From positions 217,319-281,318 of the forward strand of contig CBFHKH010000001.1 of assembly GCA_965656375.1 (NCBI GenBank): DNA of 64,000 nucleotides. Direction: 5' to 3'. A model generated the notes under the pieces. It was given only the letters and a program-made list of their open reading frames with translations, was not told the DNA's origin and searched no databases. The stretch comes from Minisyncoccia bacterium. Its GTDB lineage: Bacteria > Patescibacteriota > Minisyncoccia > Phycocordibacterales > UBA9973. Below, one piece after another: positions 34,135-34,336 of this stretch. The position numbers and the translations under genes were made by a program. The number at the start of each line of letters is the position of its first letter. Positions within the stretch are counted from its first letter, which is position 1.

Positions 34135-34206
34135 GCGTGTGTAGTTCAGTGGTAGAACGCTGTCCTGATAAGACAGAGGTCGAAGGTTCGATTCCTTCCA
34201 CACGCA
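34135..34206 (+). tRNA. tRNA-Ile (anticodon GAT)
   Basis: Cloverleaf: acceptor GCGTGTG/CACACGC, D arm GTTC..GAAC, anticodon stem CTGTC/GACAG with loop CTGATAA, T arm GAAGG-TTCGATT-CCTTC. No encoded CCA. Confidence 0.85.
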
Positions 34207-34336
34207 CAACTTTATTTGGGTGCGTGAGTAAGTAAACTGCTTTACTTACGTGAAGGAATCGAAAGAGTTTTCTGTATTGCTTTGCAAACAGAAAACTACC
34301 TGCGACCGTAGGGCGGGATAACGTTCCACACGCACA
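34207..34336 (+). ncRNA. tRNA-trailer structured RNA element, copy E1 (homologous to 50400-50526)
   Basis: Closing stem GTGCGTG/CACGCAC, H1 GTAAGTAAA-CTGC-TTTACTTAC, conserved TCGAAAGA, H2 AGTTTTCTGT-(aTTGCTTTGCAa)-ACAGAAAACT, conserved ACC-GCG-C-GTA tail. Bounded by a 13-nt direct repeat TTCCACACGCACA. Confidence 0.6.

Follow-up and report, generated by a model that had tools for sequence, protein, structure and literature searches.

The question raised by this locus is what the segment directly downstream of a tRNA-Ile gene is, and how it came to be bracketed by two copies of the tRNA 3′ end. The locus lies in a 64,000-nucleotide stretch (the window) of the genome of a Minisyncoccia bacterium (GenBank assembly GCA_965656375.1, contig CBFHKH010000001.1, positions 217,319 to 281,318 of the forward strand); window coordinates are used below. 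The tRNA-Ile(GAT) gene occupies 34135–34207 on the + strand (ARAGORN; Rfam tRNA, 77.6 bits) and is followed at 34219–34336, on the same strand, by a segment here called E1. E1 was found to belong to an abundant, conserved, structured non-coding module of Patescibacteria (Parcubacteria/Paceibacteria), whose insertion sites are the 3′ ends of tRNA and tmRNA genes. Its anatomy, its family, the match of each copy to its target, the covariation of its helices, its presence and absence in relatives and the wholesale replacement of its target-derived blocks are documented here. No description of this element family was found in the searchable literature, and within the literature and libraries searched it has not been described before.

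A preliminary description of the window had reported a 13-nucleotide (nt) direct repeat around E1. Both copies of this repeat, TTCCACACGCACA, were read directly in the sequence at 34196–34208 (tRNA-Ile positions 63–75) and 34324–34336, bracketing 115 nt. The same description had singled out the 10-mer CACACGCACA as recurring far beyond chance and as always tied to tRNA 3′-end-like sequence. The excess was borne out by a shuffled-background count: four exact copies are present in the window, all on the + strand (10821–10830, 34199–34208, 34327–34336 and 50479–50488), against 0.08 expected, and four copies were reached in none of 100 dinucleotide-preserving shuffles. The two middle positions had been given correctly, the first was off by 3 and the last by 1. 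The tie to tRNA 3′ ends holds for the copies at the end of tRNA-Ile and at the end of E1 and fails for those at 50479 and 10821; the 10-mer is not the recurring unit, two of its four copies having no derivation from the tRNA-Ile end. These two copies are also what would be expected if CACACGCACA were a low-complexity word recurring by chance, a compositional artefact. Such an artefact is nevertheless exceedingly improbable given the count, and given that two copies are the ends of a verified duplication and a third lies inside a homologous element; for the E1 pair it is refuted.

Within tRNA-Ile the T loop occupies 34187–34193, the 3′ strand of the T stem 34194–34198, the 3′ strand of the acceptor stem 34199–34205 and the discriminator A 34206. 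E1 (covariance model, 96.2 bits) begins with an anti-acceptor arm, GGTGCGTG (34219–34226), complementary to CACGCAC of the tRNA-Ile (positions 68–74) and to the right copy of the repeat. After a linker A (34227) comes hairpin 1 (34228–34249), in which the 9 bp stem formed by GTAAGTAAA and TTTACTTAC encloses a CTGC loop; its stem covaries, and with the conserved AAACTGCTTT it is the hallmark of the family. A GT linker (34250–34251) leads to the anti-T arm GAAGGAATCGAA (34252–34263), the exact reverse complement of tRNA-Ile positions 54–65 (TTCGATTCCTTC). Hairpin 2 (34267–34296) has a conserved CUUUUC/GAAAAG-type base and a variable, covarying top, and a conserved TACC linker (34297–34300) separates it from hairpin 3 (34302–34316; GCGACC GTA GGGCG), with a conserved GUA loop and a covarying stem. 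The right copy of the tRNA 3′ part (34317–34336) consists of the T-loop remnant GAT, four diverged nucleotides and the 13-nt repeat. All of these features are on the + strand. Isolated E1 folds with z = −4.1, its 5′ arms being paired with the 3′ copy.

A second copy of the element was located at 50400–50526 on the minus strand (covariance model, 92.4 bits, E 2e-21), directly behind a tRNA-Leu(TAA) gene of the same strand with encoded CCA (50527–50611; ARAGORN and Rfam). In minus-strand order it comprises a spacer hairpin (50512–50526), the anti-acceptor arm GCGCGAG (50507–50513), hairpin 1 (50484–50505; GCACATAAA CTGC TTTATGTGC), a GT linker, the anti-T arm GTGGGGGTCGAA (50470–50481), which is the exact reverse complement of tRNA-Leu 54–65, hairpin 2 (~50438–50467), hairpin 3 (~50418–50433) and a degenerate right copy, CTCTCACCTCAAACA (50400–50414). 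Its hairpin 1 has the same loop as that of E1, and the differences in the stem are compensatory. E1 and the Leu element are homologous, non-coding and structured; with filters off, the family covariance model recovered only these two in the 64 kb, the next match scoring 12.6 bits. The third 10-mer falls into place here. On the tRNA-Leu strand the 50479 copy reads TGTGCGTGTG, that is, the last five nucleotides of hairpin 1, the GT linker and the first three nucleotides of the T-stem antisense, and the family consensus at this stretch is ..GCTTGC GTG TGGGA..; because it is composed in this way, its likeness to the tRNA-Ile acceptor is coincidental. The adjacent TTCGACCCCCAC (50470–50481), earlier taken for a copy of the tRNA-Leu T arm, does match the T loop and T stem, but it is inverted, lying on the opposite strand from the tRNA.

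Metagenome contigs scanned for the motif gave at least 120 loci, many of the matches coming from the Hainich groundwater sets. A scan of a genome collection with 17 specified bases yielded two real relatives among 51 matches, about 49 being chance; these two lie behind tRNA-Glu in Campbellbacteria and tRNA-Gly in Adlerbacteria, both Parcubacteria genomes. A tRNA ends within 250 nt upstream, on the same strand, in 94 of the 126 motif matches listed. Many of the others are at contig edges, one has a tmRNA upstream (L125) and three have tRNAs with group I introns upstream (L072, L080 and L091); among the remainder three look like chance in coding sequence and several are unexplained or come after an RNA 3′ end not recognisable as that of a tRNA. 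The element always has the same orientation as the tRNA, and its hosts include at least 13 tRNA types (Ser, Leu, Tyr, Lys, Arg, Trp, Val, Gly, Cys, Met, Asn, Ile and Glu) as well as tmRNA. The common layout is tRNA, spacer, antisense of positions 73–67, hairpin 1, antisense of 66–54, hairpins 2 and 3, and a direct copy of positions ~56–75, so that scaffold blocks (spacer hairpin, hairpin 1, hairpin 2+3 core) alternate with inverted and direct blocks derived from the target.

Each copy matches its own tRNA. In an unbiased test on the fetched contigs, the antisense of a tRNA's own positions 54–65 was present within 300 nt downstream for 86 of 209 tRNAs, and 18 of these positives have another hairpin-1 sequence or no hairpin 1. 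In 50 of 84 unique cases all 12 positions of the anti-T arm are complementary to positions 54–65 of the element's own tRNA (mean 11.2/12). Over the variable positions 59–65 the match to the own tRNA is 6.23/7, compared with 4.43 when tRNAs are permuted and a maximum of 4.76 in 1000 permutations. The segment 5′ of hairpin 1 is the reverse complement of tRNA 66–73 in most listed cases. Most elements also contain, 50–110 nt past the anti-T arm, a direct copy of tRNA 59–73 with 0–3 mismatches; because of this distance the unit can be put at about 110–190 nt and non-coding. The left edge of the direct copy lies in or just after the T loop (position 56 in 13/44 and 60–61 in 24/44), and the right edge mostly 0–5 nt past N73, with two cases 16–17 nt past it.

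Covariation was tested on an alignment of 31 elements. Standard pairs fill 93.5% of the alignment cells compared with 70.9% in shuffles, and compensatory changes occur in 28 of 36 pairs. The covariation score is 0.62 versus 0.19 for shuffled alignments (reached in 0/500) and at most 0.125 with slid partners; the covariation in hairpins 2 and 3 does not depend on the tRNA. Of 57 elements, 49 fold better as the + strand. The compensatory changes are those by which structured RNAs are generically recognized, and a single-stranded DNA fold would give the same. G–U outnumber A–C mispairs by ~16 to 7 in hairpins 1–3 (hand tally from the pair table) and by 46 to 34 in the arms.

A comparison of the tRNA-Ile and tRNA-Leu loci among relatives, which the preliminary description had proposed, revealed orthologous loci without the element. 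The tRNA-Leu/gatB locus is conserved in relatives; it is empty in L053 (GatB 88% identical) and L055 (84%), and filled in the window and in L054 (GatB 84%). tRNA-Ile lacks the element in five related contigs, and the relatives without it at either tRNA have GatB or AtpB proteins 81–88% identical to those of the window. In L054 the T loop is TTCGATT and the antisense is altered to match (AATCGAA), so that the anti-T arm tracks its different target. Scaffolds (hairpin 1 plus core) as similar as 80–87% identity occur behind different tRNAs, with unrelated antisense and direct-copy blocks. The window and L054 elements behind tRNA-Leu have the spacer and hairpin 1 in common and differ in hairpin-2/3 subtype, which suggests that right modules have been exchanged between elements at the TCGAA boundary. 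Tandem or nested element pieces occur at tRNA 3′ ends, and several loci have insertions at tRNA 5′ ends, flanked by perfect 18–41-nt direct repeats that include promoter or leader DNA and tRNA positions 1 to 10–18. In three of the latter (L054 8641–8762, L063 ~520–671 and L086 ~345–504) a hairpin with the AAACTGCTTT loop abuts the left repeat; others are found in L128 and in L073 (three tandem units), and the L054 insertion has an antisense copy of its target.

The preliminary description had read the direct repeat as attL/attR-like scars of a tRNA-targeting integrase. The part of that proposal that concerns past integration at the tRNA agrees with an insertion bounded by a duplicated tRNA 3′ end and with empty loci in relatives; what was inserted is a conserved module of ~120 nt and not a random scar. 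Ordinary scars of this kind would have been left by a tyrosine-integrase phage or island that entered at the tRNA and was later almost fully deleted. The directly repeated tRNA 3′ part with its junction in the T loop fits this, the T loop being reportedly a known sublocation for integrases, and tmRNA genes are targeted as well. The uniform insert size of about 110–190 nt and the conserved, covarying architecture over more than 100 loci do not fit, and the antisense copy running from T loop to acceptor, absent from classical att sites, is left unexplained. Integrase remnants were absent: there is no integrase among the 40 window open reading frames (ORFs) scanned, and no integrase or ORF inside the inserts, which measure 110–250 nt, the right copies lying within 250 nt; a single distant perfect right-copy match was seen (L078, 2.9 kb). 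The attL/attR reading is thus largely refuted, and the chance that it is right is very small. Integrase islands and prophages do resemble the element in their insertion at tRNA and tmRNA genes, in the T-loop junction, in presence or absence between related genomes and in duplicating the tRNA 3′ part while leaving the tRNA intact (a 13-nt repeat in E1, 0–3 mismatches in most family members); they differ in that the element is ~120 nt long, lacks integrase and cargo, and contains a hairpin-split inverted target copy with scaffold interleaved between target blocks.

Of the 82 sites at which the tRNA and the direct copy differ, 62 have an antisense arm that pairs with the tRNA and only 9 one that pairs with the copy, which fits three copies that were identical at insertion and a direct copy that decayed later. 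The spacers are mostly palindromic, forming terminator-like hairpins continuous with the tRNA/antisense palindrome (mirrored pairing 60%, compared with 39% shuffled); it reaches at least 75% in 18 of 61 long spacers, several of which are perfect. At L171 the flank is present inverted and also directly repeated. A plus/minus/plus triplication with inverted middle is the classic product of a double template switch (DUP-TRP/INV-DUP). Enzyme-free template switching, in which replication folds back downstream of the tRNA, returns at the palindromic TTCGAA T loop and spreads the core through shared T-loop microhomology, would account for the direct–inverted–direct arrangement. The copy edges also agree with it: because the inverted copy always ends at position 54 and the direct copy mostly starts at 56 or 60–61, both lie around the TCGA palindrome. 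The palindromic spacers, the doubly repeated L171 flank and the right modules apparently swapped at the TCGAA boundary can be counted on the same side. The difficulty is that the same core, and a hairpin placed identically in the inverted arm, would have had to arise in over 100 separate events, which is hard to account for without dedicated machinery. A search behind 219 tRNAs for palindromic fusions that lack the core came up empty, and the scaffold is under strong structural selection. We regard template switching as quite improbable.

The strong conservation of structure raises another alternative, that of a structured RNA that benefits its host. Transcribed together with the tRNA or immediately behind it, the element would fold into a mini tRNA-like molecule whose acceptor and T helices are built from the antisense arms and the direct copy, with hairpin 1 in place of the tRNA body. 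Such an RNA would be a substrate for RNase P, RNase Z and the CCA-adding enzyme. Its role would be to signal processing or termination, both for the tRNA and for the mRNA downstream, or to control maturation by pairing with the 3′ half of the tRNA. The very strong helix covariation, the conserved junction nucleotides, the invariable location on the tRNA strand and the better folding of the + strand in 49/57 all argue for it. The transcriptional setting does so too. The 13-nt spacer of E1 is not terminator-like and the scan found no terminator between tRNA-Ile and E1; after E1, at 34373–34399 and before the convergent gene for an RRM protein, there is a hairpin (AAAAATACTCCC GAGA GGGAGTATTTTT) with flanking A and T runs. 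This hairpin, which is conserved in relatives and which a simple terminator scan did not list, is likely to be a bidirectional terminator that ends the tRNA-Ile/E1 transcript. The Leu element ends 12 nt before the gatB ATG (50387), and in the element-free L053 (9995–10090) and L055 (9946–10040) gatB begins only 3–8 nt after the tRNA-Leu 3′ end; because of this spacing the 5′ end of gatB mRNA in element-free genomes is probably made by tRNA 3′ processing. As gatB is close behind the element or, if the site is empty, behind the tRNA, a direct copy could preserve a tRNA-like processing site.

Several observations make a host RNA unlikely nevertheless. The same tRNA loci are element-free in the close relatives described above, and in the fetched contigs the element is present at only ~40% of tRNAs. 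Many family spacers, judged by eye, resemble the G+C-rich hairpin with a T run that follows a gene, and would stop transcription before the antisense arm. The direct copies decay uncompensated, as the 82 differing sites show, and G–U is not clearly favoured over A–C. A processing signal needs no copy of the neighbouring sequence, and the insertions at tRNA 5′ ends duplicate promoter DNA.

The interpretation preferred here, to which we give an even chance, is that the module is a non-autonomous mobile element whose arms, hairpin 1 and target make up a tRNA-like three-way junction, by which an enzyme encoded elsewhere would recognize its site or be guided to it. Two partners are open to the antisense arms, the 3′ half of the tRNA and the direct copy; with each of them the arms would form a helix that resembles the acceptor and T arm, hairpin 1 branching off where the tRNA body would sit. 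Formed in single-stranded DNA or RNA, this helix may be recognized by a trans-acting enzyme not encoded nearby, which would insert the element at a tRNA gene and leave the tRNA intact. Immediately behind the tRNA, the palindrome that includes the spacer would often form a hairpin resembling a terminator, and the direct copy would keep a tRNA-like 3′ end before downstream genes such as gatB. That the module would move as a unit, that base pairing may guide it and what type of enzyme and intermediate would be involved are inferences.

A number of results weigh against mobility of this kind. The 40 window ORFs scanned include no integrase, transposase or reverse transcriptase, and no recombinase recurs within 3 kb of ~120 related loci, around which ORF clustering returned only housekeeping families and the LAGLIDADG endonuclease from group I introns. 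A search of the related loci gave no autonomous, protein-coding version, no free or circular form of the element was seen, and viral contigs contained no copies, the sole motif match there being a chance one in coding sequence. The copies in the window are diverged and show no sign of recent activity. Presence or absence in relatives could reflect loss and not gain, and the family search was seeded on hairpin 1, which makes the sample a biased one. The variable length of the direct repeat is a poor fit to a fixed staggered cut. The excess of G–U over A–C is small, so an RNA fold and a single-stranded DNA fold are indistinguishable. Finally, we know of no transposition chemistry that gives inverted and direct target copies interleaved with scaffold blocks.

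Known systems resemble the element in part. Like miniature inverted-repeat transposable elements (MITEs) and other non-autonomous repeats (PATEs, REPINs), it is small, non-coding, hairpin-rich and present in several copies per genome, and its antisense arm and direct copy form inverted termini, though target-derived ones. Unlike in MITEs, these inverted repeats copy the local target, no parent transposon is known and there is no fixed target-site duplication, the repeat extending 0–17 nt past N73, or 18–41 nt in the 5′ type. Elements of the IS200/IS605 family recognize their target and cleavage sites through base pairing, using a short internal guide located beside the foot of a hairpin. By comparison with a PATE of this family, the guide-like arms of the element measure 8 + 13 nt rather than 4 nt and there is a single hallmark hairpin; no Y1 transposase was found in the scanned part of the window, and each element has one hairpin-1-type hairpin. 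An IS200/IS605-type Y1 transposase gene (PF01797, Y1_Tnp) is present at L053 16670–17203, 6 kb from the empty tRNA-Leu site of this relative, the closest one. In integron attC sites and the attP(+) site of CTX phage, one strand folds into an imperfect hairpin with an extra-helical branch and in this way restores the site as a duplex. The palindrome of tRNA 3′ half and antisense, with hairpin 1, has a similar look; there is no sequence similarity, no IntI or Xer site was recognized and the single-stranded intermediate is hypothetical here.

Tags with tRNA-like ends (plant mitochondrial t-elements, mascRNA, viral tRNA-like structures and retroplasmid 3′ ends) share the predicted acceptor/T-arm mimic, a possible substrate for RNase P or RNase Z, and a position at the boundary of a downstream gene. 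The element differs from them in copying the neighbouring tRNA's own sequence and in having a two-hairpin core in place of the T loop. The bridge RNA of IS110 and the omega RNA of TnpB/IscB likewise join programmable segments, which change together with the target from one close relative to the next, to a conserved scaffold; no adjacent recombinase (DEDD or serine) or nuclease gene and no Rfam match were found for the element. A bridge RNA follows a two-strand scheme, whereas both arms of the element are antisense to the same strand; the IS110 bridge RNA was rejected as a candidate on this wrong arm polarity and for want of a recombinase nearby. The TIGR-Tas guide arrays of Parcubacteria, the one neighbouring subject met in the literature, differ in being tandem arrays in which two spacers target opposite strands.

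Other candidate classes were also tried and set aside. Hammerhead and other small ribozymes were rejected on the absence of core motifs and of an Rfam match. A T-box, an H/ACA-type pocket and a box C/D guide were dismissed, as no boxes are present and the organism is a bacterium. The element is not a plain tRNA copy for primer binding, as at a retroviral-type primer-binding site, because hairpin 1 splits the antisense stretch. With Rfam 15, only the tRNA family reached its gathering score in the whole window, and nothing credible was obtained on either element at E up to 10.

In a more specific version of the mobile-element interpretation, the elements would be programmable mobile units guided by nucleic acid. 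The antisense arms on either side of hairpin 1 would then be a split guide of ~20 nt, in RNA or single-stranded DNA, that directs a trans-acting enzyme to the segment from T loop to acceptor of a tRNA or tmRNA gene, and guide and direct copy would both be rewritten, with the new target as source, at every insertion. We offer this tentatively and consider it rather doubtful.

The genomic setting of the two window copies shows further features. By its GatB and its ATP synthase subunit a, the window belongs with Paceibacteria/Nomurabacteria-like Patescibacteria. In relatives with an element-free tRNA-Ile, the tRNA is co-oriented with and abuts the first atp gene; at L177 (2030–2330), L179 and L182 it lies between the atp promoter and atpI, in the same orientation, abutting the atpI ATG. 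The window is rearranged at 34027–34420, where tRNA-Ile is inverted, lies upstream of the atp promoter, has a promoter-like site of its own and carries E1. According to a consensus scan, this promoter-like site (TTGCGA, 17 nt, TG-TATAGT) is at 34068–34096 on the + strand and diverges from the minus-strand atp-operon promoter (34082–34054). At gatB, the database calls are extended upstream, giving proteins of 490 amino acids for the window (P0001) and 499 for L053 (P0002), compared with 471 from the ATG at 50387. No tRNA was found in a further 8 kb of the window's genome.

The remaining 10-mer, at 10821, is intergenic, upstream of a DEAD-box helicase gene. The possibility that it is a remnant of an element right end was rejected, as the covariance model gave no match there with filters off; this copy is unrelated to the element. 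The segment 10787–10830 lies between the divergent helicase gene (9415–10755, minus strand) and a cold-shock-protein-like gene (from 11021, + strand). On the helicase strand the 10-mer reads TGTGCGTGTG, complementary to the tRNA-Ile 3′ end, with no element homology found, and it is preceded by a hairpin, GCCCGAGATGGGC. The fragment TGCCCGAGATGGG at 10787, previously likened to the reverse complement of the tRNA-Leu 3′ end, found no support as a piece of tRNA-Leu and is a simple hairpin. Elsewhere in the window, 19855–23625 encodes a Y-family polymerase (IMS), a protein with a methylguanine-methyltransferase DNA-binding domain, a PIF1-like helicase and an S24 (LexA-like) peptidase.

Some members of the family have unusual surroundings. 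At L064, L092, L120, L129 and L169 the element follows a conserved 3′ end, ..AAAATAGGTTCTAACTTGGTATAGTA.., with no recognisable tRNA; the end belongs either to some other RNA gene or to a tRNA whose T loop is altered or expanded. L081 (~4487–4570) has a second hairpin 1, whose CTGC loop contains an inserted, tandemly duplicated GC-rich repeat of ~29 nt. At L184 (11769–11808) an ordinary terminator hairpin (ACAACCAAA TTGC TTTGGTTGT) has a hairpin-1-like loop and gives a weak model match of 22 bits, and hairpin-1-like loops may on that account be common in the terminators of this lineage. The element was also seen downstream of intron-split tRNA genes, with group I introns at L072 10842–11139, L080 986–1221, L091 3259–3490 and L124 8330–8450; LAGLIDADG ORFs are present at four loci and a LOOT RNA (RF03000) in L124. 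ARAGORN called unusual anticodons in several contigs (TTA in L077, a possible ochre suppressor; ACT in L062 and L174; TAT in L096 and others), and some of the tRNAs concerned carry the element.

In the tiny genomes of Patescibacteria few mobile elements have been recognised, and few small RNAs are known. The novelty lies in an abundant, conserved, structured module at many of their tRNA and tmRNA genes, with a stretch in each copy that is complementary to the target of that copy. Behind tRNAs the module can give rise to terminator-like hairpins, and it affects annotation: gene callers extend the gatB ORF into or across the element, and its masking or annotation in metagenome-assembled genomes is advised. 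Should the module be a host RNA, it would represent tRNA-like elements of a new class, with a part in processing or regulation. If it is mobile, its scaffold-and-guide design would point to a poorly understood way of recognizing and copying a target, one that could be reprogrammable; and were the programmable-unit reading true, the chemistry of targeting and insertion would be one undescribed for any transposon, integrase or retroelement.

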